NCBI GenBank assembly: GCA_964562445.1
Contig: CAZLSZ010000001.1
Coordinates: 10,755 to 74,754, forward strand
Direction of reading: 5' to 3'
From: an uncultured Gammaproteobacteria bacterium
GTDB taxonomy: Bacteria > Patescibacteriota > Microgenomatia > Levybacterales > UBA12049
DNA length: 64,000 bases
How positions within the stretch are numbered: position 1 is the first letter of the stretch; each line of letters starts with the position of its first letter. A program made the translations under genes and the position numbers. The notes beneath the pieces were generated by a model. The model was not told the DNA's origin and did not search any database. It was given only the letters and a program-made list of their open reading frames with translations. Of this stretch, positions 1,671-62,150 are shown in pieces.

Positions 1671-2588
1671 ATGATACAAACACTGATTGGTCAGAAAATT
1701 GATCAGACACAAAAATTTTTGGAGAACGGGAGAAGAATACCCGTTACGGAAGTCGCTGTTGCAGATAATTTTGTCGTGCAGGTAAAAACGACTGAAAAAG
1801 ACGCGTACACAGCTGTTCAATTAGGATGGGGAATCAAGAAGAAACCTTTTAAGGCTGCCTCAGGTCATGCAGGAAAGGCAAAACTTACAAACGTTCCCAC
1901 TGTTTTGCGGGAAGTACGTTTGCAGGATGAGAATGATCTTCCTGAAGTAGGTTCGGCAATTTCACTAGATACGGTATTTAAACCGGGAGATATCATCGAT
2001 GTGAGCGGTGTCTCCAAAGGAAAAGGCTTTGCCGGTGGTGTGAAGCGATATAACTTCAGAGGCGGTCCGAAAACACATGGTCAGTCAGACAGACATCGTG
2101 CACCGGGTTCAATCGGTCAGGGAACGACGCCGGGACGCGTGTATAAAGGAAAGAAAATGGCAGGACACATGGGAGATGAAGATGTCACGATCAAAAATCT
2201 CACTGTTGTCGATGTGGACGCGGAGAATAAAAAATTATACGTATTGGGGCTTCTCCCCGGTACAAAAAAATCAACCGTTGTGATTACTGTAACAGGCGAA
2301 ATGAAGAACTTTGTCCCATTGTTAAAGATAGAAACCTCTGCAAAGCAGAGCTCTGAAGATGTTGCAGAGCAGAATAGTGAGTCTGCAAAACAGGATGAAG
2401 AAGTAAAAGAAGCTGTTTCTGAAGTGGCAACCGAAGAACCAAAAGAGGACGTCTCTGCAAAGCAGAGTAAAGATGAGGTACAGGAGGCAGCAAAAGAAGA
2501 CAGTGCAGAAGAGAAGAGTGAATCTGTACAGGAAGAAAAAGCTGAAGAGAAAGAAGAAGTGAAGGAGGAAAAGGAAGATGGCAAGTAA
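1671..2588 (+). CDS. rplC: 50S ribosomal protein L3 with ~95-aa acidic K/E-rich C-terminal extension
   Basis: uL3 core (GWGIKKKPFKAASGH..., FRGGPKTHGQSDRHRAPGSIGQGTTPGRV) then tail SAKQSSEDVAEQ...[18 protein letters not shown]. Confidence 0.92.
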   Translation: MIQTLIGQKIDQTQKFLENGRRIPVTEVAVADNFVVQVKTTEKDAYTAVQLGWGIKKKPFKAASGHAGKAKLTNVPTVLREVRLQDENDLPEVGSAISLDTVFKPGDIIDVSGVSKGKGFAGGVKRYNFRGGPKTHGQSDRHRAPGSIGQGTTPGRVYKGKKMAGHMGDEDVTIKNLTVVDVDAENKKLYVLGLLPGTKKSTVVITVTGEMKNFVPLLKIETSAKQSSEDVAEQNSESAKQDEEVKEAVSEVATEEPKEDVSAKQSKDEVQEAAKEDSAEEKSESVQEEKAEEKEEVKEEKEDGK

Positions 2589-3399
2589 CACAAAACTGAA
2601 AACTGAAAATAAAGAAAAGGAAGTAAAAACGATGAAAAAAACAGTAAAAGCTGAGAAAAAAGTGGTAGTAAAAGCCGAGGATGTGAAAGCAGAAGGACAA
2701 ATATCTGTTACTCCTAAGCGTATAGTGAAGAAGGAGAAGGCTATGGATGCCGTGAATTTGAGCGTAAATGTACTGGGAATTGACGGGAAAGCGGCAGGAA
2801 AGATGGATCTTCCTGAAGAATTGTTCGGGCAGAAAATTAATAAAACGCTTATCGCGCAGGCTGTCAGAGTATTTTTGGTGAATCAGCGGCAAGGAAACGC
2901 GTCTACAAAGACCAGAGGTGAAGTTGACGGATCAAGTAAAAAGATTTATCGACAAAAAGGTACAGGGCGCGCGCGCCATGGTACCTTGCGCGCGCCAATA
3001 TTTGTCAAGGGAGGTATTGTATTCGGACCCAAACCTCGCGACTACAATCTGAGTCTGCCGCAGAAGATGAAGCAGAAGGCTTTGGTCAGCGCGTTGTCCG
3101 CGAAGGTGAAAGACAGTCAGATTTCGGTTATTTCCGGACTTGCATCTCTGGAGCCCAAAACAAAATTATTTGCGGAAATGCTCGAAAAGATCGGATTGAC
3201 TGATAAAAAGATAAATGTGTTGTTTGTCATGTCTCCTGAATTGCAGAAAGCACGACGCGCGGGACAAAATATTCAGGGAGTACAATTTGCAAATGCAGCG
3301 CAGTTGAATGTATATGAAGTCATGCGAGCAAAGACAGTTGTGTTGGATAAAACAGTGATTGCTCTTCTGCAACAGAGAGTAAAAAAGGAGGATAAATAA
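2578..3399 (+). CDS. rplD: 50S ribosomal protein L4 with K-rich N-terminal extension
   Basis: uL4 motif [33 protein letters not shown]. First ATG at 2578 overlaps the rplC stop. Alternative start ATG at 2743 (MDAVNLSV...) cannot be excluded. Confidence 0.85.
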
Positions 3400-3401
3400 G
3401 T

Positions 3402-3701
3402 ATGAATGCGCCGGTAATTATCAGACCATTAGTAACCGAAAAAGCGATGTCCGAGGCAAATAAAGACAAATACAGCTTTATCGTCGCAAAGGACGCGACA
3501 AAATCGCAAATAAAATATGCGGTAAAGAAAATGTTTAATGTGACAGCTGTCAGTATCGCGACCAGTATTGTGAAAGGAAAGTCTCATCGGGTCGGGATGC
3601 GACGGGCAGAAGTACAAAAGGCGGATTTCAAAAAAGCCATTGTCACCCTGAAAAAAGGTGATAGAATAGCGTTTGCAGAATCCGGAGCGGAGGGAAAGTA
3701 A
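3402..3701 (+). CDS. rplW: 50S ribosomal protein L23
   Basis: 99 aa, uL23 fold sequence ([10 protein letters not shown]...KYSFIV...AVKKMFNV). Confidence 0.9.
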
Positions 3702-3702
3702 T

Positions 3703-4467
3703 ATGAGTGCATTAAAAACAATAAAAAAGAAACATTCGGGACGAGACGCAAGCGGACAGGTAGTGGTGCGCCATCAGGGCGGCGCGCATAAGAGATATTT
3801 GCGCAGCATTGACTTTAAGCGCAATAAACAGCCGTCAATTGTGGGTAAAGTCATCGGAATTGAATATGATCCGAATAGAACTTGTGATATTGCTCTGGTA
3901 CAATACACAGATGGGGAGAAAAGATATATTCTTGCTCCGCAAGGATTGACGAAAAATGATACAATTGCTTCCGGAAAAGGAGTAGATATCAAAGTCGGTA
4001 ACGCGCTTCCGTTGGGAGACATGCCCGCGGGTACGTTTGTGCATAATATCGAGTTGACACCCGGTAAGGGCGGACAGATTGCTCGAGGCGCCGGTACAGG
4101 TGCCATCGTGAATGCGAAAGAAGGAGATTATGTCTTCTTAAAGATGCCGTCAGGAGAAATCCGACGTGTACATGTCAATTGTATGGCTACGGTCGGTCAG
4201 GTCGGGAATGTCGAGTGGAAAAACGAAGTAATCGGTAAAGCTGGACGATCCCGAAATATGGGCAGACGGCCAAGTGTTCGTGGTGTGGCTATGAATCCGA
4301 GATCTCATCCTCACGGAGGAGGAGAAGCGAAATCCGGAGTCGGTATGAAGAGTCCCAAGACCTATGCTGGTCGTAAGGCTGTCGGTAAGACCAGACGCCC
4401 GAATAAATATTCGGATAAGTATATCGTAACTCGAAGAAAGGGAGGAAAACATAATCCTACCAAATAA
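3703..4467 (+). CDS. rplB: 50S ribosomal protein L2
   Basis: Start chosen at ATG 3703, directly after the rplW stop. [17 protein letters not shown]..., [31 protein letters not shown]. Confidence 0.93.
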
Positions 4468-18083: not shown

Positions 18084-18533
18084 ATGCAGCAGGCACAAAT
18101 AACGAAATCAACAAAAGCAGATGATATTAAAAGGTCATGGCATATGATTGATGCTAAAGGCCAAACGCTCGGAAGAATCGGGACACAGATCGCGACCTTG
18201 TTGATGGGCAAAGCAAAGCCGTATTTTGTCCGAAATCTTGATTGCGGAGATTATGTCGTCGTCGTAAACGCGAAAGATGTCAAAGTAACGGGAAAAAAAG
18301 AATTACAAAAGACATACTACAGACATTCGGGCTATCCGGGTGGTTTTAAGTCAGAGACATTGAAAGAGCTTCGTGCTCGAAAGCCGGAAGAAATCATCAC
18401 GCATGCCGTGAAAGGGATGCTTCCTGACAATAGACTCAAGGCAAAAATGATGGCGCGACTTTTTGTCAATGCTGACGAAACAAATAAGTACGAAAATAAG
18501 TTGAAAGGAGTGAGCAAGGGAGAAGAGAAATAG
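18084..18533 (+). CDS. rplM: 50S ribosomal protein L13
   Basis: SWHMIDAKGQTLGRIGTQIATLLMGKAKPYFVRNLDCGDYVVVVNA. Confidence 0.95.
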   Translation: MQQAQITKSTKADDIKRSWHMIDAKGQTLGRIGTQIATLLMGKAKPYFVRNLDCGDYVVVVNAKDVKVTGKKELQKTYYRHSGYPGGFKSETLKELRARKPEEIITHAVKGMLPDNRLKAKMMARLFVNADETNKYENKLKGVSKGEEK

Positions 18534-18544
18534 CTCAGAACATT

Positions 18545-19021
18545 ATGGCAGAAGTAACACAGACACAAAAAAATAAAAAAACAAAGAAGGATTATACCTT
18601 TGCCGTGGGACGCCGCAAGGAAGCGGTTGCCCGTGTACGGTTATATGCTTCCGTTCCTGCGGATTTGAAGTGGGAAGAAGCTGAGATTAAGAAAGGTGAG
18701 ATGTATGTGAATGGCAAGCTCATTTCCGACTATTTCGGTGGAGATATCGCGCGTCATCAATATACTGAACCGCTTCGTATAACCAACGCGCATCAATTGA
18801 ATTATACGTTTACCATCAAAGTTGTCGGTGGAGGTCCTGCCGGCCAATTGCAGGCTGTTATCGCAGGTATTGCCAACGCGCTCAACAAAGTTGATCGCGA
18901 AAAGAACAGACCGACCCTCAAGAAAAAAGGATTCCTTACCCGTGATCCGCGCGTCCGTGAACGACGAAGTGTGGGTACCGGAGGGAAAGCACGCCGCAAG
19001 CGCCAATCACCAAAGCGCTAA
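18545..19021 (+). CDS. rpsI: 30S ribosomal protein S9
   Basis: AVGRRKEAVARVRL..., C-terminal GGKARRKRQSPKR. Confidence 0.95.
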   Translation: MAEVTQTQKNKKTKKDYTFAVGRRKEAVARVRLYASVPADLKWEEAEIKKGEMYVNGKLISDYFGGDIARHQYTEPLRITNAHQLNYTFTIKVVGGGPAGQLQAVIAGIANALNKVDREKNRPTLKKKGFLTRDPRVRERRSVGTGGKARRKRQSPKR

Positions 19022-19037
19022 AACATCTCTTTGTCAT

Positions 19038-19062
19038 CCTGAATCTGCTTTGCAGATGAAGG
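19038..19062. terminator. hairpin between convergent rpsI and GIY-YIG gene (weak bidirectional terminator; shares the gtcatcctgaa motif with the repeat family)
   Basis: atctgc-ttt-gcagat stem with flanking cctga/gaagg extension. Confidence 0.3.
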
Positions 19063-19099
19063 ATATCCCACGAATGTGGGGAATAATTACTCTCACATT

Positions 19100-19372
19100 T
19101 TATTCAGATAAATCTTTAAATTTGGGGTTACTATTTTTAATAAGTTCAATTTTTTTCTTTCGTGTCCACCCTTTGATTTTCTTTTCAGCAGCGATTGCAT
19201 CCTCTATATTATGGAATGTTTCGAGATAGACAAGTTTGTGAATATTGTATTTTGCCGTATAATCAGGGATCAACTTATTTTTGTGTTCATATAATCTTCG
19301 CTCAATATTATTGGTAACACCTGTGTAGAGCATATAAGATTTACTCGTCAAAATATATAAAAAATAGCCCAT
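19100..19372 (-). CDS. GIY-YIG nuclease family protein (YhbQ/UPF0213-like, 90 aa)
   Basis: GYFLYILTSKSYMLYTGVTNNIERRLYEH...E, a canonical GIY..YIG..R..E core. Confidence 0.85.
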   Translation of the reverse strand: MGYFLYILTSKSYMLYTGVTNNIERRLYEHKNKLIPDYTAKYNIHKLVYLETFHNIEDAIAAEKKIKGWTRKKKIELIKNSNPKFKDLSE

Positions 19373-19430
19373 TATATTATCATAATATATTTTATGTAAT
19401 GTATGCTACCTCGCATACGCGAGATATTAT

Positions 19431-19460
19431 TCGCCAGCTGAGCTTGCTCAGAATGACATT
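19431..19460. repeat. palindromic repeat-family member (cgccagctgagcttgctcagaatgaca)
   Basis: ctgagc-tt-gctcag stem followed by aatgaca. Related to cgccagctggcgg...aatgaca at 35533-35556. Confidence 0.4.
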
Positions 19461-19462
19461 TA

Positions 19463-20428
19463 CTATTTGAGGTCGATGATGGTGATTTCTTGTCTTTCAA
19501 TTTCTTTACTTTTTGCAAACCCTTCTTTTATGGCATCGCGAAATGCCTCCATGCTTTGATATCTTTCTTCAGGTTTGAATGCCAGAGCAGTATGGACAAC
19601 TTCTTCAATCGGCTCCAGATTTTTTGCCATATTGTCTTTTAATGAATCCTCAAATAACGGTGGTTTAGCCGTTAGATGCGCCATAGCGCTTGCAGCGCGT
19701 GTTATTCTGTTATAAGGATTTCTTCCCGTAAAAAGTTCATACCCTACTACTCCCAGCGAATAAATATCTCCTTCAGGCACGCTTATTATTTCTTCTTCGC
19801 TTCCCACTCGTTCATGAGGGACATATGCAGGCGTACCGTACGGGTCGTATTCATAATATGTTTTTTCACCTTTTTTTAGCTTTACGGCCATTCCCCAGTC
19901 GATAACTTTTATATTGGGTACTCCATTTTCTTCATGAAACAAAATATTATCGGGTTTGATATCCCGATGCAGAACGCCTTGCTGATGAGCGTATTCTATA
20001 CCTGCGGCAGTTTGCGCGAGAATGTGTACTCCGCAGTGAATACTTGCGCGTCCTTCGCGTTTTAATCTTTCTTTTACAGATTTTCCGTCAGCAAACCGCA
20101 TGGCGATATACGGATATTCTGCTTCACGATCATATTCAAATAAGTGAATAATGTGGCTATGGATAAGTTTTTGATGTATGAGGGCTTCATTATCAGCCTC
20201 CTGTAGAGGGTATTCGTTTTTAAATACTTTGAGCGCGACAGTATTTCCCGTGGTGGTATCAGTTCCTTTATAGACTTCGGCTGTCCCGCCTCTGCCGATC
20301 TTTTTCCCCAGGATAAATTTTTCATTGAATGTCCTGCCCGGAATTAATTCTTTCTTTTGCATAAAAAAGGGATTATAGTAGAGATTACCCCATTTTGCAA
20401 GGGATTGAGGGGTAAATATGATTGTCAT
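19463..20428 (-). CDS. Hanks-type serine/threonine protein kinase (soluble, kinase domain only)
   Basis: GRGGTAEVYKG...ALKVF (G-loop and VAIK-like), HRDIKPDNIL (catalytic loop), DWGMA (DFG variant), GTPAYVPHE. Confidence 0.9.
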   Translation of the reverse strand: MTIIFTPQSLAKWGNLYYNPFFMQKKELIPGRTFNEKFILGKKIGRGGTAEVYKGTDTTTGNTVALKVFKNEYPLQEADNEALIHQKLIHSHIIHLFEYDREAEYPYIAMRFADGKSVKERLKREGRASIHCGVHILAQTAAGIEYAHQQGVLHRDIKPDNILFHEENGVPNIKVIDWGMAVKLKKGEKTYYEYDPYGTPAYVPHERVGSEEEIISVPEGDIYSLGVVGYELFTGRNPYNRITRAASAMAHLTAKPPLFEDSLKDNMAKNLEPIEEVVHTALAFKPEERYQSMEAFRDAIKEGFAKSKEIERQEITIIDLK

Positions 20429-20492
20429 GCTGAACTTGTTTCGTCACCCTCGCGCCTGCCTGCTTGCAGGCAGGTTCGGAATGACAGGGAAT
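20424..20492. repeat. nested palindromic intergenic repeat (gtcatgctgaacttgtttcg ... cctgcctgcttgcaggcagg ... ttcggaatgacag)
   Basis: 9-bp GC-rich inverted repeat at 20455-20474. Flanking motifs are shared with copies at 32218-32332, 35254-35346 and 37077-37196. Confidence 0.55.
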
Positions 20493-20502
20493 GTGGGGGG
20501 CT

Positions 20503-21717
20503 TTAGCGGGAGGAGTGTTTGAGTGATTCGGCGGCGATACTCACGGATATTCCCAGTGCCATACCCAGAAGGATACCGATCAGCCCTGCGGAGAATTTTC
20601 CTCCTTCTTTTAATGTCGCCAGTATTTTTTCCCGTCGCTCTTTTCCTTCAGGAGTAGAGGCATCAAATTCGGGAAGCATATCCAGGAGGGAATTAAAGTC
20701 TCCTTTGGCGACCCCTTCTATTACGTCACGCGCTTTGCCGCTATCCAAATCCCCCTCCTGCGCTCTTTTGAAGTATTCATCCATCGGATCTTCTCCTTTT
20801 TCTCGTGCTTCTTCCATCATTTTGTCCATTTGATTTACCATGCCGAGTTCTTTTTCTGCCTGTTCCAGCCGGCGTTTTGCGATCTCGTCATCGGGGAATT
20901 TGGTAAGTATATCTTTTTGTTGGGTTATTTCAGCTCTGAGTGATGCCGCTTGTTTTTCAATTCCTGCCGGACCTACTCCCAGCACATCCATCATCGCGTG
21001 AAAGTCATCTTTGTCCAGAATCGTCTTGCCGTCAATCGCCTGCAATGCTTTGTCAGCATCTTCCCGATCAGGGTGCCCTTCCGGAACGGTTTTATCGATA
21101 ATAGCTCGCATATCTCCTGCGGTGAGCATACCTTTCTCGCGTGCAATCTTTTCTATCTGCGTACTCATCTCATCGGTCATCTCCGGTGTTTCCATACTGG
21201 GATCAATCGTATCCAGATATGTCTTTACAAATTCCCGCTCCTCTCCGGTAAATCCTGCTTCTATGGCTTGTCTTTCCGACACAAGATTCATTCCCATAAG
21301 TTCACTTGGTGGGATAGTCATATCATATCTTGCAGCATCATCGCGGCCTCCTTCTCCTTGTTTGATTACTTTGCATGTGTAATTCCCTTTATCATCGATC
21401 CCTGTTATCTGGTCGACGTAAACATCATACGTCTCTCCTGTGGTACTGTCTTCATAGGTTGTTGCCAGCGGATTACCTTTGTCAGTGCCTTCTGTCGTAG
21501 GGAATGCAAGGGGGCCATTGGCAAAGTATTCTTGTTTGGGTTCATAAAGCTGTTTTGAACCTCGTATCTTGGTTCCTGATTCGTCATTCTCTTGAGATTT
21601 TTTGTTAAAGACACTACTTGCTACCAGTCCTATTTCTTTTGATCGGCGAGCTTGCTGCTCGGGAGATACTTCGCTTTCTGTTCGGGGTGGTGCTGTCTGC
21701 TCTGCTGCTTCTGTCAT
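20503..21717 (-). CDS. hypothetical acidic protein with C-terminal transmembrane anchor (tail-anchored), co-directional upstream of the STK
   Basis: 404 aa, D/E-rich, with coiled-coil-like middle. C-terminus GGKFSAGLIGILLGMALGISVSIAAESL is hydrophobic. No recognisable catalytic motif. Confidence 0.6.
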   Translation of the reverse strand: MTEAAEQTAPPRTESEVSPEQQARRSKEIGLVASSVFNKKSQENDESGTKIRGSKQLYEPKQEYFANGPLAFPTTEGTDKGNPLATTYEDSTTGETYDVYVDQITGIDDKGNYTCKVIKQGEGGRDDAARYDMTIPPSELMGMNLVSERQAIEAGFTGEEREFVKTYLDTIDPSMETPEMTDEMSTQIEKIAREKGMLTAGDMRAIIDKTVPEGHPDREDADKALQAIDGKTILDKDDFHAMMDVLGVGPAGIEKQAASLRAEITQQKDILTKFPDDEIAKRRLEQAEKELGMVNQMDKMMEEAREKGEDPMDEYFKRAQEGDLDSGKARDVIEGVAKGDFNSLLDMLPEFDASTPEGKERREKILATLKEGGKFSAGLIGILLGMALGISVSIAAESLKHSSR

Positions 21718-21761
21718 ATTCTTAATATAGTTGAATAATCCCTATAAATCAACTAACATGA

Positions 21762-24356
21762 ATGTATATGGCTAATATAGAGCAGATTTTGCCTGTAGTA
21801 AAAGAAAAGGCGAAAGATACAGGAAAACAAGGCGCGGCTAAAGTAAAACACTTTTTCGGTCGGGGAAATAATGTGTCTCCTCAAGAACAACCTCAAAAGC
21901 CGGCATATGCCACTCCGGAATTTAAGAAAAATTTTTTTGTAGATAGGGGCGTGACAACGGAAGCTGCGGTAAAAGGCAGAAGGAGAGAAACCAACGAACG
22001 ATCAGAATGGGTACAATTTTCTGAAAAGACGAGAGAAGGGTTTACGACGTTTTTGGATAATTATGCCACAAATCTCCATGATATCATGCAGCAGCCTGGT
22101 GGCGCGGATATTCTCAAGTCACAAGAGCATAGTAAACATATCTATAAGCTTCTTTCAGAAGGAGTGTCATTTGATGGGACCAAGCAGGATGATACCAAAC
22201 TCAAGGAGAATATCAAAAAAATGCTTGATAAACCATCCGGCTGGGTGCTTACCAAAGAACTTATGGAACAAGAAACAGCCCTCGGTCTTATGGCTTTGGG
22301 GTTGGTAACAAGCGAGGATATGGGGAAAAGTGGTAAGTTGAGAGCAGTAGGAGAATATCTCGGGCTTGTTGATAAAAAAACTGATTTTAATAATGACCCT
22401 GGCTCAGTTATGCATCGTAATATAGGCAAAGGTACCGGAGGGAGTATAGGTGCAGTAGTCGGTGGTGGTGTTGGAAATATATTATCACGTGGGAATGCTG
22501 ATTTCTGGTTCAATATTGGGGATACTATGGCAAATATCCCTCATGGAAGTGTTGCGATGTCAACATATATTGGTGCAGGGGTTGGGGCGGTCTTAGGAAG
22601 TAGTTTGGCAGAGGGACGGAGGAATAAGCAAGATGCAGGGATGAGAGGGGAGTTTGCTTCTCATGAAAGTGCTGTTCTTCCCGGCGAATTGAAAGATTAT
22701 CTGAAAAAAGTTTGGAAAGTAGATGTTGATGGTTTGAAGAGTAGCGAGGCTGATGTGCGGGATGTTATGGGGACGTTGGCAAAGAATCTTAAAACGCGGG
22801 AATCGTATTTTGATGATCTTGGAATACCCAAAGATGTGCGGGATATGTCTCCGGAGAGTAAATTAATTGGAGGACGTTCTGTTGCACGGAGTGGGGAGAA
22901 GATTACACAAAAAATAATGGCAGTTTATAAAGAGAAAGGTGGAAGCACTCCGGAACAATATATGGAGGCGAGAAAGGCAGTGCTAGGAAAAATAACACAG
23001 GAGATGATTGAAGGAATAGAAAGTAAACCAAAGGAACGCCCGCTAGCAACTATTGATCAGAAAATAAAAGACAGACAGGAAGGCGGAAAATTATATGAGT
23101 TAAAGAAAAATAGTGCTGCAACAATAGAATCTATTTCAGAAGCGGGTAAGAATATATCCTCTGTAACAGAGGAAATGGCAACTTTTCAAAATGTTAAAGA
23201 TCTAACTGCTCAAAAAAAACAACTCGAAGACGATTTAAATAATTTATATACTCATATAACACCTCAAGATAGGAAAGATGAAATACAAAAAGAGCTATTT
23301 GGTACAGGAGGACTTCAGGAGAAAAAGCGTGATACTGCCGATAAAAGAGCCGAAGCAATTGATGCAATTCGTAATAGACATCCTATAAAAGATGGGGAAA
23401 CGGCTGCTGATTATTGGAAAAAAGTTGGTCCTTCAATTGACGCGACTGAGGAAATTTATAATGAACAAATTAAGGAAGTGGAAGAAAAAATAAATAAGTT
23501 ACTTCAAGAGAAAGCACAAATTAATGAGTTTGAAGAACGAATAAAGGATATCGGAGATCAGCTCAAAGGATATTCTAATCTTATAGCAAGTTATCAGAGT
23601 GATCTTACGTCAATACAGCCGCTTTTTAGTCCTGGTGTGTTAGAAGATAGGACAATAGATCCAGCTACGCATTTGAAAACGATTAATAGTAAAGCTTCCA
23701 CGGGCGGATGGACAAAAGATGAAAATGACGAAAATAGATTGAGGCTTTTGAAAGCAATTGCAGTAGCAAGAGCAAGTTCGTCAGGAACTATTGACAATAA
23801 TTTGCTCGAAATAGAAATGAGTACACTATTATCGCAAGAAAAGAAGAAGAAAGCTGGTTTAGAACAGAGGTTAGGAACAGTAAATTATGAAAAGGAGATT
23901 AATGATCTTACCATAACAAAAACACTTATTTCTCCAGAAACACAAGCAAAGGTATTTGGGAAGGCAGGAGAAATTTCAAAACAAATAGATAAATATGTTG
24001 ATAAAGATATTGTAGACCCGAAAGATACTATATCAAAAACAGAAAAAGCCCTAAAGGGAGAGAAAGGATATTATGAAATATTAGATTTACTTTTTGAATA
24101 TAGAAAACGACCGGATAGAGAAGAATATTTTTCTCAAATAAGCAAAGTGGTTACTCAAGATGAGGTACTTAAAGCACTGCAAGAGCTAGCTGAACTAGCA
24201 GATATAGATTTAAGTACATTATCTAACCCTAATAAGTTGGCAGATGTTATGGACCAGATAAAAGCAAATAAAGGAAAAGTTACAAGTAAACATATTAGAG
24301 GTATGTTTATTCGCTTAATGGATAATAGTCAAAATCGAGCCTTGGCGATGAGCTAA
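21762..24356 (+). CDS. large hypothetical protein (864 aa): glycine-zipper segment plus long coiled-coil region
   Basis: GKGTGGSIGAVVGGGVGNILSRG...YIGAGVGAVLGSSLAEG (GxxxG-rich). The remainder is K/E-rich heptad-like sequence. Start could be ATG 21768. Confidence 0.6.
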   Translation: MYMANIEQILPVVKEKAKDTGKQGAAKVKHFFGRGNNVSPQEQPQKPAYATPEFKKNFFVDRGVTTEAAVKGRRRETNERSEWVQFSEKTREGFTTFLDNYATNLHDIMQQPGGADILKSQEHSKHIYKLLSEGVSFDGTKQDDTKLKENIKKMLDKPSGWVLTKELMEQETALGLMALGLVTSEDMGKSGKLRAVGEYLGLVDKKTDFNNDPGSVMHRNIGKGTGGSIGAVVGGGVGNILSRGNADFWFNIGDTMANIPHGSVAMSTYIGAGVGAVLGSSLAEGRRNKQDAGMRGEFASHESAVLPGELKDYLKKVWKVDVDGLKSSEADVRDVMGTLAKNLKTRESYFDDLGIPKDVRDMSPESKLIGGRSVARSGEKITQKIMAVYKEKGGSTPEQYMEARKAVLGKITQEMIEGIESKPKERPLATIDQKIKDRQEGGKLYELKKNSAATIESISEAGKNISSVTEEMATFQNVKDLTAQKKQLEDDLNNLYTHITPQDRKDEIQKELFGTGGLQEKKRDTADKRAEAIDAIRNRHPIKDGETAADYWKKVGPSIDATEEIYNEQIKEVEEKINKLLQEKAQINEFEERIKDIGDQLKGYSNLIASYQSDLTSIQPLFSPGVLEDRTIDPATHLKTINSKASTGGWTKDENDENRLRLLKAIAVARASSSGTIDNNLLEIEMSTLLSQEKKKKAGLEQRLGTVNYEKEINDLTITKTLISPETQAKVFGKAGEISKQIDKYVDKDIVDPKDTISKTEKALKGEKGYYEILDLLFEYRKRPDREEYFSQISKVVTQDEVLKALQELAELADIDLSTLSNPNKLADVMDQIKANKGKVTSKHIRGMFIRLMDNSQNRALAMS

Positions 24357-24377: not shown

Positions 24378-24722
24378 ATGAATACAGCAAAGGATGTAAT
24401 CAAATTATTACCGTTTAGCGAAACGTTCAAGAACGAACTGCTCGCTAAGTACGACCTGATGGATGAGGATCAGCAGGTGGCTGTACTGCGGGCGGTGTGG
24501 GATCTGTATGATGCCCTTTATGAAGTCACGCTTGATGAAAATCTCAAAGCGGCTGAACAGCGTGCGCTCAAGGACGAAGAAAAACTCGACGAAGACTTCT
24601 ATATGCGGGTACGCAAACAAACTGATCAGGACTTCCAAAAGTTTGTCAGTGAGTCCTCAGCAAACAGTGATCTTTCCACAGCACGGGAAGAATTACAGAA
24701 GATTCTTACACAATCCTCATAA
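24378..24722 (+). CDS. hypothetical small acidic protein (114 aa)
   Basis: ORF with strong coding character. No known motif. Confidence 0.5.
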   Translation: MNTAKDVIKLLPFSETFKNELLAKYDLMDEDQQVAVLRAVWDLYDALYEVTLDENLKAAEQRALKDEEKLDEDFYMRVRKQTDQDFQKFVSESSANSDLSTAREELQKILTQSS

Positions 24723-24775: not shown

Positions 24776-26947
24776 ATGGTAGAGAAAATATCATTATCAG
24801 AAATAGCTCGCAAGAAAATACGCCGTAGTGCAGCCACAGTTGGCGCGGCAGGTGTTGTCGCGATTCCGATGGCTGCAGTTCCTTCTGCAGCTCATGCCGA
24901 ATCCCCTGCAAATGGTTCCCCTGCGCATGTTCAGGTCGTCAAGGATGTCCGGACCGGAGGAGTAGATTTCGATGCCAAGAGAATACACCTTACCGGTGTT
25001 AAGCCTTCATATTGTGTCATCCCGGAGCCTCGGCAGGAGCCTGAAAAGCCTGAGAAAATAGATGAAAAATTATTTGATGTATATACCGTAAAAAAAGGTG
25101 ATACCCTTTCTGAAATTGCAGCGGACTCTCTCAAACAAAAAGAAGGACAGCAATTTGACTGGAAAAAAACACAAGAGGATTTTATGCTTACCGCCGCAGC
25201 ATCCGGTATCGCAAATCCGGATCTTATTTATCCCGGACAAAAGATACACATCCCGGGTAAAGAACTCCGACAGACAGTGCGTGATGCTCAGCAAGGGAAT
25301 GGGAAGAAAGAAGTAGTGGATACTGTAAAGGCGCTTACACAGGAGATCACGCATCGTGGATACCACAAGGCGGACAATGAAGCTCTGAATGTGCTTACCG
25401 CAGTTTCGGAAATCCAACAGCAAAATCCCCCGAAAGAGCCCACAGGATTAGCTGCCGATAAGAGTTTATTGGAAATAGCGACTGAATTAAATATTGCTCC
25501 CATTAATATTTCTACTCCTTTTCGATCGGATGTTGTTGAATCTCAAACGAAAATCGCTCTTGCCAATCAATGTATCGTAGGGACAGAAGCAAAATCACAA
25601 ACCACTATACGTGAACAATTGACAAGAAAAGGTGACACCAAATCAGATACTTATCTACGCGCGCGCATGGCAGAGGCAGCAACTAGCTATGATATCTCTA
25701 AGTATAATCATAACTCTAGGGATATACAGATGCAAAAAGGGGAGAAGTTCAATAAACTGTCCGGCGGTGTAGAATCAGTGTTGCAAGGAATTTCCTCCAT
25801 GAGTTTGCGGGATATGATGGATCTGAAATCATTGCGGGATCAGAAAAAGTTTCCAGATGATGTGTATACAGAGGTGGCTACATTATGGGCAGTAGCCGCG
25901 AGTAAAGATATTGGAATGATACTTAGTGAGAATGATCATCATACATTACGTAATGCAGCATATGGGCATCTCGTCGAAGCCTTGAGTCGTAATGATCGCC
26001 GTCAAGAACCTGATGATACCAAGAAACTCATTACTCTGCTCAATAAGGCAAAAACCCCCGAAGAGCGCGCTCAATTGATGCTTGATCATCCGAATGCGCT
26101 CAAACACTTCTTCCGTGATGATGCGCAAGGAGCAGTTCCACCTCTCAATCCTCCTGCGGTTGATATCTCACCGAAAGATCCCCCTAAAGATGAAGGGAAT
26201 GCCTTATTAGCTTATGGGAAAGAGCATGCTGGGTGGATTGCAGGAGCATTGGGGCTCCTTGCGCTAGGAGCGGTAGGTGTTAAAAAGAGAAAGGAAATAA
26301 AAGAAAAATTAATGCATAAAAAATATAAAGATGAGAAAGTGCAAGAAAGCTTAGCTTTGCGTAAAGCTGAGAAAAAGCACCTTACGGATGATGAAATTAG
26401 GGAGCAAATAAGATTAATTTATCCAAAAACAATGACGTGGAAGCAAGAAAGTAAACTAAGATTAAATACTAATAAAGGAAGACTGGATGTCCTTCCGAAT
26501 GAAACAAGTGTGGGGATGGATGAAGCTTCATTTAGAAAGTTTTTGGAATTTGTAAAGGAAAATCCTGATTCGGTTTATTGTAAAGCAGCACTCGACGAAT
26601 ATGAATCGCATAAAAAGGCTGGTACTGAAGATAAATATGCGTTTGTTGCAAGCGCGAGAACACGTCTTGCTACGAATCTGGAAGATGTGAAGTTAAGCAT
26701 AGAGGATAGAGATGTAACCAAGAGACCTCTTGGATATGTAAGCTTTGAGTGGAGACTTGTCGAAGTTATTGATCCAGCATCATTACCACCTCAACCACCT
26801 GCTCCTAAACGAAAGCCACGCAGAACACCTACTAGTCCGGAACCACAAGGTGGTACAACTCCGCCCGTTACTCCTGAACCGCAGGGTGGAGCTACACCAC
26901 CTGCACAGCCTGAGCCCAAGGGGGGGACGAAACCTCCTGAAAAGTAA
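24776..26947 (+). CDS. LysM domain-containing membrane/secreted protein (723 aa) with Pro-rich C-terminal tail
   Basis: N-terminal signal-like RRSAATVGAAGVVAIPMAAVPSAAHA. LysM: YTVKKGDTLSEIAADSL...IYPGQKIHIP. TM helix GWIAGALGLLALGAVGV then KKRKE. Tail PEPQGGTTPPVTPEPQGGATPPAQPEPKGG. Confidence 0.7.
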   Translation: MVEKISLSEIARKKIRRSAATVGAAGVVAIPMAAVPSAAHAESPANGSPAHVQVVKDVRTGGVDFDAKRIHLTGVKPSYCVIPEPRQEPEKPEKIDEKLFDVYTVKKGDTLSEIAADSLKQKEGQQFDWKKTQEDFMLTAAASGIANPDLIYPGQKIHIPGKELRQTVRDAQQGNGKKEVVDTVKALTQEITHRGYHKADNEALNVLTAVSEIQQQNPPKEPTGLAADKSLLEIATELNIAPINISTPFRSDVVESQTKIALANQCIVGTEAKSQTTIREQLTRKGDTKSDTYLRARMAEAATSYDISKYNHNSRDIQMQKGEKFNKLSGGVESVLQGISSMSLRDMMDLKSLRDQKKFPDDVYTEVATLWAVAASKDIGMILSENDHHTLRNAAYGHLVEALSRNDRRQEPDDTKKLITLLNKAKTPEERAQLMLDHPNALKHFFRDDAQGAVPPLNPPAVDISPKDPPKDEGNALLAYGKEHAGWIAGALGLLALGAVGVKKRKEIKEKLMHKKYKDEKVQESLALRKAEKKHLTDDEIREQIRLIYPKTMTWKQESKLRLNTNKGRLDVLPNETSVGMDEASFRKFLEFVKENPDSVYCKAALDEYESHKKAGTEDKYAFVASARTRLATNLEDVKLSIEDRDVTKRPLGYVSFEWRLVEVIDPASLPPQPPAPKRKPRRTPTSPEPQGGTTPPVTPEPQGGATPPAQPEPKGGTKPPEK

Positions 26948-27159: not shown

Positions 27160-29562
27160 GTGGAAGGTGGAGAGCAAAAAGGCAATGCCCTCAAAAATGT
27201 AAAAGAGGGAGAAGATAATGATTATGGAAAAATGAGAGGTAAAATCAGTAGTTTAATAGACAAAGGTGCGAATATAGTTAATAGTATTAAAGATAAATTG
27301 AGTAGAGGTGAAGAAGATAGTGGAAATGTAGGAGGGGTAAAAAATAATAAAGAATCTTCCGTTACACCGAAAGCTGTTGAAGAGGTCTCTCCTCAATTTG
27401 AAGAATTTAATGCAGAGCATAGGGTAGATGAAGAGAAGAATGCGATAGAAGTCAGATCATATGGAGAATCAAATATAGGGGGCAGAGCACGAAATGAAGA
27501 TGCACATGGAACAAAGGGTAAAATCAGCTTTGCTGAGATTGGTGCAAATGGAACGTCAGATTCTGAAAAATATCAAATAATGGCAGAAATGCTGAATAAT
27601 GTAAAATTTGTAAATCCAAAAACGGGTGAAGAAGAATCATTTCAAACTTCAGGGGAATCAATAAAACAATTAGAAGAAAATCTGGGTAGTTATTTAGCGG
27701 AAGGTAAGCTAGGTAGTATTGATTTTGTAGCAGATGGAGCCGGCGGAGAAGGTAATGGTGAAGAAGCTAGTAGTATCGCTGGATTAGGTTTTTCTTATGC
27801 AATTGCTGAGGCAGTATCTCAAGGCGAAGACATTACACAAGATACAGTTCGTGAAGCTGTCATGTACGCACATAATTTAATCGTAGGGTATAACCTCCAA
27901 GATGATAAAAAGAAAGGAGCTTCCACATTTATTGCTTCAGTGACCAATAGTAAGGGGCAAACATATGTCGCTTCAGTAGGTGATTCTCGTGTCTATAAGC
28001 AAGATAGTGAAGGAAATGTTGTTCGAATCACAGAAGATCAGAGTCCTATGGAAGGTTGGGTTCAAAACGAGAGGAAGCAAATAAAAGTTGAAAAAAGAAA
28101 AGAAAATAGAGAATTTCAGTATCATGAATCCTTTACTGATATAGATAAAATTTGGGTTTCAAAACAGCTGGGTGGACGTGTTACAGAAGAATTAAGGGAA
28201 TCAGATATTCAAATATATGGAATGACTGTGGATAACCAAGAAAAATTGTTTTTAGTCTGCGATGGTGTTTGGGAAGGTATAAATCTCGCAGATAAAAATG
28301 TAAATGATGTATTACAAGAAGCCAGTAGAAAATACAAAACAAGCTTAGAACTTAAGGTATCTCCATTATTAGCAAAAAATTTTGCGGATGGGTTTGTGTT
28401 TAAAGAGGTAAATTTAAAAGGGACAGAGGGTATGTCGGCTGAAGAGTTATCCAAACATTTAACACGGCGAGAAGTTGGGGATTGGAGTAGGGATAATGTA
28501 ACAGCTGTGGTGGTAGAGAAAAGTAATAAAGTAATTCAAGAAAACGCGGATGATAAAGATAAAGAAGTAGTCTTTGACGAAATGCACTCTTCAGTATCAA
28601 TTGATGATGATGTAGAGAAAGATAATAATGGCAGTAAAATAAATGGAATAGAAAATTTAACAAAAACAAATGAGTATAAGGGCTGCAGACTTACATGGGA
28701 TAGACCTGAAGATACTGCATTAATGCCATATCATATGAAAGATATGGATGGTGAGTCTGTTCCTTATGTAAGAGCTGAAAGAATTTATAGGGAACTAGAA
28801 AAGTCTCAAATTGTTAATGAAGGTTCTACCCAAATATTATTAGGTTTTGGGTCTCAAGATCGTATACTAGAAATGGATAGATTTTCTTATAGACCTACAG
28901 CTTCTCTCTACTCAATATTTAGTGGATTCGGATGGCAATCTTCTGTCTCTGACTACGCTAAACAAGATTTTGAGTCATTTGTAAGGATGAGTTTGAGAGG
29001 TGGGAGTTCATCTGTTCAGGAAGCGCTTAGTGATTCTTTTACTGGAATGCATGAATATATGCGAAGTCTTAGGAAAATAAATAAGGAATCAGGCAGTTCA
29101 GCTCTTGTAGCATTTGTTACTAATAAAAAATTATATATCGCAAATGCAGGAGATTCTCGTGCAGTTATAGGTTCAGAAGGAAAGGCGATACGATTATCTA
29201 AAGATCATACACCAGATGATCCTGAAGAAAGACAAAGAATTGAATCAACAGGCAAGAAAGTTACTAAAACAGCAGGAGATATATATCGTGTTAATGATGT
29301 ATTGCCTGTATCGAGAGCATTAGGCTATTATGAAGCAGAAGTTAGCCCAGAACCGACCATAAAGACATACGAATTGGAAGGGAAAAAGGAAAGACTAATT
29401 CTTGCATCAAAAACATTATGGAATGTGATGAGTGATCAAGATGCTTTGGATTTAATTAAAGACACCTCTGATAGTAAAAAAGCATCAGAAGTATTGGCTC
29501 AAAAAGCAAAAGAATTGGGGAGTAAAGGAGATATCTCTGTAATCGTGGTAGATTTTAAATAA
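27160..29562 (+). CDS. tandem PP2C-family (PPM) Ser/Thr phosphatase, 800 aa; second domain degenerate at metal-binding Asp positions
   Basis: Domain 1: GGRARNEDAHG, FVADGAGGEG, ASVGDSRVY, LVCDGVWEG, DNVTAVVVE. Domain 2: LVAFVTNKKLYIANAGDSRAV, LSKDHTPDDPEERQRIE, VSRALGYYE, but SKTLWN replaces DGLWD and no DGHGG is present. The track start is a GTG; the frame is open a further 219 nt upstream with no start codon. Confidence 0.8.
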   Translation: MEGGEQKGNALKNVKEGEDNDYGKMRGKISSLIDKGANIVNSIKDKLSRGEEDSGNVGGVKNNKESSVTPKAVEEVSPQFEEFNAEHRVDEEKNAIEVRSYGESNIGGRARNEDAHGTKGKISFAEIGANGTSDSEKYQIMAEMLNNVKFVNPKTGEEESFQTSGESIKQLEENLGSYLAEGKLGSIDFVADGAGGEGNGEEASSIAGLGFSYAIAEAVSQGEDITQDTVREAVMYAHNLIVGYNLQDDKKKGASTFIASVTNSKGQTYVASVGDSRVYKQDSEGNVVRITEDQSPMEGWVQNERKQIKVEKRKENREFQYHESFTDIDKIWVSKQLGGRVTEELRESDIQIYGMTVDNQEKLFLVCDGVWEGINLADKNVNDVLQEASRKYKTSLELKVSPLLAKNFADGFVFKEVNLKGTEGMSAEELSKHLTRREVGDWSRDNVTAVVVEKSNKVIQENADDKDKEVVFDEMHSSVSIDDDVEKDNNGSKINGIENLTKTNEYKGCRLTWDRPEDTALMPYHMKDMDGESVPYVRAERIYRELEKSQIVNEGSTQILLGFGSQDRILEMDRFSYRPTASLYSIFSGFGWQSSVSDYAKQDFESFVRMSLRGGSSSVQEALSDSFTGMHEYMRSLRKINKESGSSALVAFVTNKKLYIANAGDSRAVIGSEGKAIRLSKDHTPDDPEERQRIESTGKKVTKTAGDIYRVNDVLPVSRALGYYEAEVSPEPTIKTYELEGKKERLILASKTLWNVMSDQDALDLIKDTSDSKKASEVLAQKAKELGSKGDISVIVVDFK

Positions 29563-29655: not shown

Positions 29656-30171
29656 ATGAAGGAAGGGCAGCCACGATTTATAAAAACAAAACGCACAGTA
29701 GCGGCGGGTGCTGTGGCAGGAGGATTTCTTCTGGGTATTCCGGCAGCCGCGAGTGCTGAAACGCCCCAGCCAACTCCGAGCAAAACCGCTTGCACAATGA
29801 ACGAAATAATTACGCATGAAAAATATAATCAGCCATATAAAACCTGTTATATAAATACTGCTAGCGCAAAAGAAGATAAAGATACTGATGATTTGCTCCC
29901 GTTTCTTTTTCTTGGTTTCTCTTTGGGAGTAGGAGGGCTGGCAACTGGGAAGATTGTACGTTCCAAAAAACAGTTTGAGAATGAATATCTCTATAAAAAA
30001 ACACAGAAACTATCCCCTCAACCCGAGTCATCAGACGATATACATGCAGTAGTGGAGAATTTGAAAAAACAATCGCTCACGGAAAAAGAAGAAAAAGGAT
30101 TTATGAGAAAGAAAAAAATAGATATACGCCTCTTCCTCATCAGTTCTCAACGACTGATTCCGGCATTATGA
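29656..30171 (+). CDS. hypothetical exported/membrane protein (171 aa; signal peptide plus one TM)
   Basis: AAGAVAGGFLLGIPAAASA signal. TM LLPFLFLGFSLGVGGLATG followed by basic residues. Confidence 0.55.
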   Translation: MKEGQPRFIKTKRTVAAGAVAGGFLLGIPAAASAETPQPTPSKTACTMNEIITHEKYNQPYKTCYINTASAKEDKDTDDLLPFLFLGFSLGVGGLATGKIVRSKKQFENEYLYKKTQKLSPQPESSDDIHAVVENLKKQSLTEKEEKGFMRKKKIDIRLFLISSQRLIPAL

Positions 30172-30369: not shown

Positions 30370-31017
30370 ATGAAAGAACGAAAAATAGTACAGAGTGCTC
30401 TTGCAGTAGGGCTTACATTGGGAGGTCCGACATTACCGGGGCTGTCTCTAGAGGCAGATCCTCCTACTCCTCATGTCATGCAAAGTACGGACAAAAAATA
30501 TCCTACAAAAGAAGAGGTAGAAGCCCAAATCGCCGAGAGAAATAAGAATGAATTATCGGGACTAGGAGTTGTAAGTTTGCTGAGTGCATGCGTAGTCGGT
30601 TCAGTAATCTACGCCAGACGAAAGTATAATAGATATGAAAGAGAAAAATCATTGTATCTTACCACAGCAGAACCTGTCTATGAGAAAGATGCTGCAATTT
30701 TTTCGCAAAGTCTCTATCGAAATGCCATTCCCAAGAAAGATGTAAAAAGATATGGGAAAGATCTTATGGAACGAGGTGGCAATCCCAAACATGAATTTTC
30801 AACAACCAATAAAGAAGGATTTATCAACGTCGCCAAGTCTGCGGGCATTCCGAATCGAAAAATATATGCAACTGTGTTGAATTATGATACGCTTTTGGAA
30901 GAGAAACCCAATCCCGAATCCGGTACAGTGAAAGCGCTTATTATCCAAGCATTCAATAAAAAAGATCAGACACGCTACGAAACCAAAATAGGGAAGAGAT
31001 TTTATAGAGGAAATTAA
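30370..31017 (+). CDS. hypothetical exported/membrane protein (215 aa; signal peptide plus one TM)
   Basis: ALAVGLTLGGPTLPGLSLEA signal-like. TM VVSLLSACVVGSVIYA then RRKYNRY. Same architecture as the 29656 gene. Confidence 0.55.
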   Translation: MKERKIVQSALAVGLTLGGPTLPGLSLEADPPTPHVMQSTDKKYPTKEEVEAQIAERNKNELSGLGVVSLLSACVVGSVIYARRKYNRYEREKSLYLTTAEPVYEKDAAIFSQSLYRNAIPKKDVKRYGKDLMERGGNPKHEFSTTNKEGFINVAKSAGIPNRKIYATVLNYDTLLEEKPNPESGTVKALIIQAFNKKDQTRYETKIGKRFYRGN

Positions 31018-61410: not shown

Positions 61411-61484
61411 AATTGGTGCAATTATTATATCATGGAGCTTTATACTATTTACATTTTACAAATAAGCGAGGTACACTTAACTAT

Positions 61485-62150
61485 ATGTCCGCATCAACGA
61501 TAAAGATTATTGCTCTCATATTTATGCTGATTGATCATTTCGGTATGTTTTTCTTTCCACAGGTGTTTGCCTTCAGAATTATTGGCAGATTATCATTTCC
61601 ATTGTTTGCGTGGACGATTGCGAACGGAGCTCACCATACAAAAAATAGTGCACATTATTTTTTCAGATTGGTGCTTTTTGCAGCTATCTCTCAGATACCA
61701 TATGTGCTCTCTATACGGCAGCTTGCCCCAGGTTTTAACGGTTTAAATGTATTCTTCACACTGAGTATAGGTTTATTAACAATTATGTTTGTGAGGCAGA
61801 TAAAAGATACATTTTATCGATTACTGCTTACATTTCTTATGGCACTAATTGCTCAGTTAATAAATGCTGATTATGGGGCATACGGGATACTGGTAATTAT
61901 GATATTTTACTTCTTTTATCATGATTGGAGGAAAATGCTTATTGCGCAAATTTTTCTCATGGGGCTTGTCTCTCTTATCAGCTATTATTACGCAAATATG
62001 CTGGGGATGTTCCGAGTGTTTGGAATTCTCTCCGTATTATTGCTTCTTTTGTATAATGATAAAAAGGGAAAATCGCTGAAATATTTTTTCTATATAGTGT
62101 ACCCTTTACAATTTATTCTATTTTATTTTATGCTTGAGGCGCTCAAATAA
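61485..62150 (+). CDS. TraX family membrane protein
   Basis: Start at ATG 61485 (MSASTIKIIALIFMLIDHFG, the TraX N-terminal signature). Polytopic. Confidence 0.65.
   Translation: MSASTIKIIALIFMLIDHFGMFFFPQVFAFRIIGRLSFPLFAWTIANGAHHTKNSAHYFFRLVLFAAISQIPYVLSIRQLAPGFNGLNVFFTLSIGLLTIMFVRQIKDTFYRLLLTFLMALIAQLINADYGAYGILVIMIFYFFYHDWRKMLIAQIFLMGLVSLISYYYANMLGMFRVFGILSVLLLLLYNDKKGKSLKYFFYIVYPLQFILFYFMLEALK

Follow-up and report, generated by a model that had tools for sequence, protein, structure and literature searches.

Type IV secretion systems (T4SS) of the Patescibacteria, or candidate phyla radiation (CPR), are related to the MPF-FATA class of monoderm conjugation systems and carry a signature of VirB4, TrsD, VirB3/PrgI and arrays of VirB2-like pilins, often located near dnaA (2025 survey; PMC12102498). 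In the Microgenomatia, VirB8 is nearly undetectable and VirB6 is scarce, and Patescibacteria T4SS mostly have no relaxases (PMC12102498); protein export has been proposed for them, both in that survey and in a study on the saccharibacterium Southlakia epibionticum (PMC12102498; PMC10633639). A cluster of this kind is indispensable for the epibiotic growth of S. epibionticum and holds three hypothetical giants, SEML1_0007, 0011 and 0013, that Tn-seq has shown to be essential (PMC10633639), and this is the first T4SS on which the survival of its owner has been shown to depend (PMC10633639; reviewed in PMC12857230). The 64-kb stretch of DNA presented above (the window) encodes an 864-amino-acid (aa) protein, called T, which belongs to no described family and is part of a conserved set of three genes (the triad) that also includes a divergent partner, ‘up’, and a downstream partner, S114; loci of relatives are denoted by L and a number. 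From sequence and gene order, we tentatively propose, with slightly less than even confidence, that T, ‘up’ and S114 constitute a membrane-anchored module that is accessory to the Patescibacteria T4SS in Microgenomatia-type CPR.

The proposal is built on the T gene and its family, the signature of a hairpin within the protein, an all-alpha model, the synteny of the triad, its adjacency to T4SS genes in other lineages, and its fast evolution. From these features we infer a membrane topology for T, a complex between the three proteins and a role in secretion, with function being drawn from genomic context only. The window also holds the ribosomal alpha operon, and the best named matches to its RpoA are proteins of Candidatus Levybacteria/Levyibacteriota that are 81% identical to it; therefore, the window is derived from a Levybacteria-like member of the Microgenomatia.

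The triad and its linkage to T4SS genes

The flanking DNA of relatives was examined for as much as 10 kb to either side of T, with less available at some loci, and that of the window over its 64 kb. Across this material, an S114-type protein (112-118 aa, pI 4.4-5.0) directly follows T in 13 of 13 independent lineages, between which the identity of T is only 21-49%, and the gap that separates the two genes is as small as a few bases in other lineages. S114 is also far better conserved than its neighbour. Its identity is 80-82% where that of T is 38-49% (the window and L001 share 80% in S114 and 49% in T), and the Levybacteria and Roizmanbacteria versions are 36-40% identical to it, compared with ~25% for T. 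A probe of GTDB genomes with S114 recovered three genomes. One candidate identity for this small protein, membership of the WXG100 family, was rejected because the conserved Trp precedes G or D instead of x-G and no Pfam match was obtained.

On the other side of T, a divergent acidic ‘up’ protein of 400-540 aa is encoded in every lineage with enough flanking DNA. The window ‘up’, which is 44% identical to that of L001 and 30% identical to that of L003, has one C-terminal transmembrane segment (TM) with a Kyte-Doolittle hydrophobicity in a 19-residue window (KD19) of 2.18, followed by a 9-aa tail, and a C-terminal TM is found in all 12 aligned members (KD19 2.2-2.45, tail of 6-14 residues). Because ‘up’ is tail-anchored, its bulk is placed in the cytoplasm. 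The T and ‘up’ families are not homologous to each other when compared by hhalign; neither ‘up’ nor S114 has a match in Pfam, PDB or PHROG, and neither of them belongs to an NCBIfam family. The gap between the divergent genes is ~45-55 bp in most related loci and 8 bp in L010. In the window this gap contains promoter-like hexamers on both strands, at a frequency that is not above that of shuffled sequence, and scans for promoters and terminators around the triad also gave results no better than shuffled sequence.

T4SS genes adjoin the triad in 7 of the 13 lineages. In the Levybacteria loci (L011/12/15/25/26) and in L017, L021 and L023, the triad is situated directly after genes for VirB4, a TraC-like protein (TrsD) and PrgI (VirB3), in an arrangement in which a 736-aa protein, VirB4, the TraC-like protein, PrgI and ‘up’ are encoded in this order on one strand, and T and S114 on the other. 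Genes for VirB2-like pilins (one to four T4SS_pilin genes) occupy the far side in the Levybacteria loci, L017 and L021, and pilin genes alone are found beside the triad in L028, L036 and L003-8. When proximity to virB4 is defined as a distance of at most 20 coding sequences, as in the published survey (PMC12102498), the orthologs in L011, L017, L021 and L023 are near virB4, and those in L028, L036 and L003 agree in part, with pilin genes as their only T4SS neighbours. The clusters that bear the triad are sometimes near dnaA/dnaN. Thus, in several lineages the triad resides among the VirB4, TraC-like/TrsD, PrgI/VirB3 and VirB2-like pilin genes that typify the Patescibacteria T4SS; it differs from the described components in that T, ‘up’ and S114 match none of their Pfam profiles, and the window triad stands apart from the core genes.

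The members of these clusters diverge at very different rates. Between L011 and L017, identity is 86% for VirB4, 76% for the TraC-like protein, 51-67% for the pilins, 51% for both PrgI and S114, 32% for ‘up’ and 26.5% for T, and a comparison of L021 with L023 gave 71% for VirB4, 51% for both the TraC-like protein and PrgI, 47% for S114, 25% for ‘up’ and 24% for T. In addition, RpoA is 91% identical between the window and L001, where T is 49% identical. Hence, no other genes of the cluster evolve as fast as T and ‘up’, which have the lowest identities in both pairs of loci; T also contrasts strongly with RpoA.

Other proteins that are conserved and unannotated are encoded in the Levybacteria cluster of L011. 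These are a second giant tail-anchored protein (18098-21172, + strand; 1024 aa, TM at aa 992), the 736-aa protein (2235-4445, - strand), with a single TM at its centre, and a 537-aa polytopic protein (21192-22805, - strand) that may be a divergent VirB6 analogue; the last two have homologs in L017, L023 and L036. The L017 locus is from contig CAZYWG010000006.1 of a metagenome-assembled genome titled ‘uncultured Gammaproteobacteria bacterium’, and it contains a Levybacteria-like T4SS cluster whose VirB4 is 86% identical to that of the Levybacteria locus; this contig is probably misbinned or mislabelled. Matches to the window RpoA that bear the names Acidoferrales, Sulfotelmatobacter and Methylomirabilota, at ~80% identity, seem to share this problem.

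Family and architecture of T

The gene for T is a real open reading frame (ORF), and its product is rich in Lys (11.0%), Glu (8.7%) and Gly (8.2%). A word-indexed search of 5.8 billion proteins returned four homologs that are 26-49% identical to T, and a repeat of this search with a 62-sequence profile returned the same four proteins. When a profile was searched against 1.84 billion cluster representatives, 221 of them matched at E <=0.001 and 123 at E <=1e-30, nearly all over their full length of 900-1600 aa. Most sequences in an alignment of 62 members share 16-28% identity with the window protein, and the family is marked by an N-terminal PEFKRNFF motif, the stretch PSGWVLTK...ALGL and a C-terminal (E/Q)A(L/M)A(L/M)(S/P) motif. 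Even in very divergent lineages, T is retained as one full-length, collinear copy, and the named members of its family are all ‘hypothetical proteins’ of Candidatus Levybacteria and Candidatus Roizmanbacteria, both of which are CPR.

No significant sequence match for T was found in Pfam, NCBIfam, PHROG or PDB, no Pfam match (those to Gly-zipper families included) recurs among 32 members of the family, and six giant members contain no Pfam domains. Apart from a sub-threshold Gly-zipper match, described below, scans of T, ‘up’ and S114 against Pfam, NCBIfam, PHROG and PADLOC gave nothing beyond generic coiled-coil matches to LmuB, RacA and a flagellar hook-associated protein, and the coiled-coil matches from the PDB (RipA N-terminal domain, E 7e-5, and ApoA-I) are judged to be compositional. 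A Foldseek comparison of two models with the PDB gave no match at E <=0.001.

Two family members, P0001 (aa ~410-640) and P0004 (aa ~400-1010), contain an insertion of 250-650 aa relative to the window protein, located between its residues ~390 and ~400; the insertion consists of D[KIR]WGQ … NP.F-type repeats and has no Pfam match. Exact copies of window proteins were found in L033 and L037, on very short contigs (1-1.3 kb) of NCBI assembly GCA_020049695.1 (contig numbers >800,000), so the same organism is present there as fragments in a very large, fragmented assembly.

The AlphaFold model of T is all-alpha and confident, with a mean predicted local distance difference test (pLDDT) score of 80.4 and 546 residues at 90 or above. 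The first 40 residues are charged, disordered in the model and without a hydrophobic core that resembles a signal peptide. Within this otherwise disordered N-terminus, the PEFKKNFF motif (Table 1) stands out: P52-E53-F54-K55, N57 and F59 are invariant in the five closest homologs, F59 is conserved in 92% of the 62 members, and the block of residues 51-60 has a mean pLDDT of ~90, compared with ~35-60 for adjoining blocks. The model predicts that the motif is docked onto the N-terminal helical domain, which is 81% helix with mean pLDDT values of ~88-96 per 10-residue block over residues 81-180, and which includes the part of the family alignment with the highest column conservation (0.55, residues 151-180). 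Overall, residues 1-215 are basic (pI 8.6). The C-terminal domain is predicted to be 76% helical, is split into ~25 helices, and has a mean pLDDT above 88 in most 10-residue blocks; its conserved positions include R346, G354, P364-E365, A403-R404, G649-W650, E761, G769-Y770, F778, Y780 and R786. Its only clearly coiled-coil-like element is the long helix of residues 548-621 (H548-621); the second-longest helix, H455-495 (41 aa), has an a/d hydrophobic occupancy of 0.55. This long helix is also the source of the weak coiled-coil matches to RipA, ApoA-I and LmuB. No enzymatic motif was found in T, and a Walker A motif that is present in 2 of the 62 family members is absent from the window protein.

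Between these two domains is a block with the features of a Gly-zipper hairpin, in which two segments (residues 222-246 and 263-285), each with four successive (G/A/S)xxx(G/A/S) units, are joined by a turn of ~20 residues with a charged 12-aa core (RGNADFWFNIGD). The pLDDT of this region is ~30 in the model. The triplets G226/G230/G234 and G271/G275/G279 do not vary in the five closest homologs, and a Gly/Ala-rich uncharged block occupies the same alignment position in 62 of 62 aligned family members, in most of which no other part of the protein is as hydrophobic (mean maximal KD19 of 1.53 vs 1.13 elsewhere). The block is a single uninterrupted run of 34 or more uncharged residues in 14 members, and in 12 of these a Pro is located in the middle third of the run; the 31 members with two stretches have a median loop of 8 aa, often with a single Asp or Glu beside a Pro. 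These features set the block apart from a chance occurrence and support its interpretation as a conserved element that resembles a membrane hairpin.

The closest described motifs are the Glycine zipper 2TM domain (PF05433; Rick_17kDa_Anti) and, more broadly, the glycine zippers of transmembrane segments, with which T shares two adjacent helices with repeated (G/A/S)xxxG spacing, invariant Gly triplets and a two-helix hairpin. T differs from PF05433 proteins, which are small lipoproteins or outer-membrane proteins, in having the hairpin inside an 864-aa helical protein, and only the second segment (residues 267-285) aligns to PF05433, with a score of 16.5 bits (E 0.0078) that falls below the gathering threshold of 24.2.

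The original prediction, which was derived from the nucleotide sequence, had recognized the ORF, its Lys/Glu-rich composition, the lack of a signal peptide and the glycine-zipper block, all of which are borne out by the present analysis. It had also described ~550 aa of coiled coil, of which the helical nature holds and the continuous coiled coil does not, as strong heptads are confined to the 74 residues of H548-621. Similarly, the proposal that the zipper inserts into membranes in the manner of channel-forming or toxin-like proteins is retained insofar as a membrane-hairpin-like element is conserved, and the likeness to channels or toxins is one of motif only.

Table 1. Coordinates of the triad, of the elements within T and of adjacent genes in the window.
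Feature	Coordinates	Strand	Description	Basis
Hanks-type Ser/Thr kinase	19463..20428	-	321 aa, without TM; 74 bp downstream of ‘up’, same strand	Pkinase, E 2.4e-47
‘up’	20503..21717	-	404-aa acidic (pI 4.6) tail-anchored membrane protein, divergent from T	synteny and TM
‘up’/T divergent intergenic region	21718..21761	.	44 bp	coordinates
T (target gene)	21762..24356	+	864 aa, ATG start; all-alpha, putative central Gly-zipper hairpin; unannotated family	
Conserved PEFKKNFF motif, aa 52-59	21915..21938	+	in otherwise disordered N-terminus of T	conservation and model
N-terminal helical domain, aa 85-199	22014..22358	+	holds best-conserved stretch PSGWVLTKELMEQETALGLMALGL	model and conservation
Putative Gly-zipper helical hairpin, aa 222-285	22425..22616	+	two segments and a turn	two Gly/Ala-rich uncharged segments
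C-terminal all-helical domain, aa 305-864	22674..24353	+	pI 5.7; last helix conserved, ending ...NRALAMS	model
Long heptad-patterned helix, aa 548-621	23403..23624	+	74 residues, ~11 nm	a/d hydrophobic occupancy 0.76
S114	24378..24722	+	114-aa acidic protein (pI 4.4), best-conserved triad member	21 nt 3' of T, same frame
LysM protein	24776-26947	+	723 aa; Sec-type signal peptide (…PSAAHA/ES); one LysM domain	
Double-PP2C protein	27160-29562	+	800 aa; PP2C_2 at aa 187-371, PP2C at aa 576-790	

A proposed T4SS accessory module and its alternatives

If the triad is an accessory module of the T4SS, T would be held at the cytoplasmic membrane of its own cell by the tight Gly-zipper hairpin. The very short hairpin loop and the absence of a signal peptide would place both large domains on the same side of this membrane, and that side is most simply the cytoplasm, because the partner protein is tail-anchored and there is a slight excess of Lys and Arg on the hairpin flanks (K+R per 12 aa across the family of 2.7 and 2.1, vs 1.95 in the loop). 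With this topology, the candidacy of T as a surface or effector protein, which the original prediction had raised, is not supported. The two helical domains (~115 aa at the N-terminus and ~560 aa, including the 11-nm helix, at the C-terminus) would then be exposed on the cytoplasmic face, where a complex of T, ‘up’ and S114 could regulate the VirB4/TrsD/VirB3 machine or serve as an adaptor or scaffold at its base. In this capacity, the module may fill roles for which Microgenomatia have no recognizable proteins, such as those of VirB8, VirB6 or a coupling protein encoded in the cluster. In the clade of the window, the module would have been relocated beside Ser/Thr kinases and a PP2C phosphatase, and the fact that the triad adjoins these genes suggests that it is controlled by phosphorylation.

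Several observations weigh against this proposal. The hydrophobicity of the hairpin is marginal, with a KD19 of 1.37 in the window protein and only 28 of 62 members reaching 1.6, so its stable co-translational insertion is not assured; the hairpin of the Levybacteria ortholog is likewise below 1.6, compared with 2.2-3.5 for clear TM proteins encoded in the same loci. The window T has no virB4 within 20 coding sequences, searches with family hidden Markov models detected no VirB4, PrgI, TraC-like or pilin gene in the 64 kb, and the only T4SS-related genes there, which encode a VirD4-like protein (54447-56408) and TraX (61413-62150), are ~30-37 kb from the triad. In the flanking DNA that was examined, no T4SS core gene is near the triad in 6 of the 13 lineages (the window, L001, L009, L035, L013/14/16 and L034), and the linkage seen in the others could partly reflect gene order inherited within one class. 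Furthermore, T, ‘up’ and S114 have no homology to known T4SS subunits among Pfam and NCBIfam profiles, the main text of the published survey does not include the T family or the triad (PMC12102498), and the T4SS passages of the Southlakia study do not mention the triad (PMC10633639). Finally, evolution as fast as that of T and ‘up’ would be unusual for the core part of a machine.

Some of these same properties are what one would look for if T were itself a secreted protein. In this alternative, which we consider possible but unlikely, T is a translocator or pore former that is chaperoned by S114, exported by the T4SS without a Sec signal, and inserted via its hairpin into the membrane of a host cell, where it would open a conduit or anchor the epibiont. 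A marginally hydrophobic hairpin suits a protein that has to be soluble before insertion, T lacks a signal peptide, and its evolution outpaces that of the pilins and of every other gene in the cluster, as would be predicted for a protein that meets the host. The tight coupling of T to a small, acidic and much better conserved S114 is reminiscent of a chaperone, and both the short motif in the disordered N-terminus and the one at the extreme C-terminus are conserved. There is also precedent for such a function, as Gly zippers are needed for the membrane translocation or toxicity of Tde1 (PMC10240207) and TelE (PMC10434224), and the general scarcity of relaxases among Patescibacteria T4SS, together with the proposal of protein export in the survey and in the Southlakia study, provides a possible route (PMC12102498; PMC10633639).

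However, a recognizable secretion signal is absent from T, the co-conserved ‘up’ is anchored in the membrane of the producing cell, and the PF05433 match is sub-threshold. The persistence of T as a single-copy, collinear and full-length protein over great divergence is also more typical of a machine part than of an effector repertoire. The comparison with known secreted proteins is similarly mixed. Tde1, of a type VI secretion system (PMC10240207), and TelE, of a type VII secretion system (PMC10434224), resemble T in carrying a Gly zipper in a protein that is genetically tied to a specialized secretion system, but they have a toxin domain or a small pore-forming C-terminus plus immunity genes, whereas T is without a toxin domain and is not accompanied by an obvious immunity-like gene. 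The translocators of type III secretion systems (T3SS), exemplified by IpaB/IpgC and YopB/SycD, resemble T by architecture only (no Sec signal, helical or coiled-coil regions, a central hydrophobic two-helix hairpin and a small acidic neighbour gene), and neither homology of T to IpaB, YopB or SipB nor a class II chaperone with tetratricopeptide repeats was found. A likeness to chlamydial Inc proteins, which combine a bilobed hydrophobic domain with a coiled coil, was considered and rejected because the organism is a CPR bacterium with no T3SS. A more specific form of the translocator idea, that T is the host-membrane translocon of the CPR T4SS, solubilized by S114, exported via the T4SS/pilus and inserted by its hairpin into the membrane of the host bacterium as a conduit for metabolite uptake or protein delivery, is slightly more doubtful; if it were true, the extreme evolutionary rate of T would represent adaptation to different hosts.

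The 6 lineages of 13 in which the triad is away from T4SS genes point to another interpretation, namely that T is a scaffold of the envelope, division apparatus or cytoskeleton that is independent of secretion and controlled by the Hanks-type kinase and PP2C phosphatase, with T4SS proximity being a product of inherited gene order near the replication origin. EzrA, MapZ and DivIVA are membrane-tethered helical scaffolds of monoderm bacteria and substrates of Hanks-type kinases. T resembles them as a long, helical, presumably cytoplasmic and membrane-tethered protein that has Ser/Thr kinase and PP2C neighbours in the window clade; it differs from them in that no sequence or fold match was found, its predicted anchor is a central hairpin instead of an N-terminal TM, and its synteny in other lineages is with T4SS genes. 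In favour of such a role, Ser/Thr kinases flank the triad in the window, L001, L009 and L035, genes for a secreted LysM protein and the double-PP2C protein follow it in the window, and the family profile weakly matches the coiled coils of RipA (E 7e-5) and EnvC (E 0.015), both of which are regulators of peptidoglycan hydrolases. The latter matches are confined to generic coiled coil and reflect compositional bias, though, and in L011, L017 and L021 the triad has stayed precisely between PrgI and pilin genes despite a T identity of only ~21-26%. An extreme evolutionary rate is also atypical of division proteins, and on balance we view this interpretation as improbable.

Two further identities are effectively eliminated. 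A housekeeping SMC-like or chromosome-partition coiled-coil protein, the homology that the original prediction had named as its own refutation, is suggested by matches to LmuB in PADLOC (E 1.4e-5, residues 452-642) and RacA in NCBIfam (E 0.008), but it is effectively refuted because every match is limited to the region of the long helix, T has no ATPase head or hinge (the Walker A distribution given above applies here), Foldseek found no structural counterpart, and neither the membrane hairpin nor the synteny fits. Tape-measure proteins of phages are long and helical, and often have hydrophobic Gly-rich segments. Assignment of T to these or to another mobile-element protein would have its architecture as the only argument, along with a LysM neighbour that matches phage endolysin PHROGs via its LysM domain alone, and is effectively excluded by the lack of PHROG matches for all three triad proteins, the absence of S114 relatives from the viral contigs scanned, and a chromosomal context beside the ribosomal alpha operon or dnaA/dnaN with no phage structural genes nearby. 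A dynamin- or mitofusin-like protein was also rejected, as T has no GTPase motif.

Genomic neighbourhood and implications

The original prediction placed T opposite a kinase operon and ahead of LysM and PP2C genes. The LysM and PP2C genes do follow T (Table 1), and the divergently transcribed gene is ‘up’, with the kinase gene located behind it on the same strand. Kinase genes are also found beside ‘up’ in L001, L009 and L035, and in the window the Hanks-type kinase and the double-PP2C protein bracket the triad. The LysM protein has a hydrophobic segment near residue 484 and C-terminal PEPQGG(T/A)TPP-like repeats, and its relatives are encoded downstream of the triad in L001 and L009. After the PP2C gene are two ORFs on the + strand (29656-30171, 171 aa, and 30370-31017, 215 aa) whose products have signal-peptide-like N-termini and no database match. 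A 90-aa putative GIY-YIG-type ORF (19100-19372, - strand) is situated between the genes for ribosomal protein S9 and the kinase, and L001 has a GIY-YIG gene at the equivalent position. The distant VirD4/TrwB-like coupling protein of the window has two N-terminal TMs, and TraX belongs to the F-pilin acetylase family; both genes are on the + strand.

The suggestion that T is connected to a symbiotic lifestyle, which is putative in the lineage of the window, receives indirect backing from the presence of the gene in T4SS/pilin clusters of related lineages. The suggested CPR origin of T is borne out, since named homologs come only from the CPR and the window RpoA points to the Levybacteria.

If T, ‘up’ and S114 prove to be unrelated to secretion, they would still include a widespread, fast-evolving and CPR-specific membrane protein family without a detected structural relative. 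Where it is embedded among T4SS genes, the triad is a candidate for the missing parts of the CPR T4SS, or for its first substrate or translocator. The three families, with their alignments and a confident model of T, offer defined targets for experimental work. The existence in these clusters of an unannotated three-gene module, encoding two putative membrane-anchored proteins plus S114, suggests that the inventories now available for the CPR T4SS lack some of its parts.

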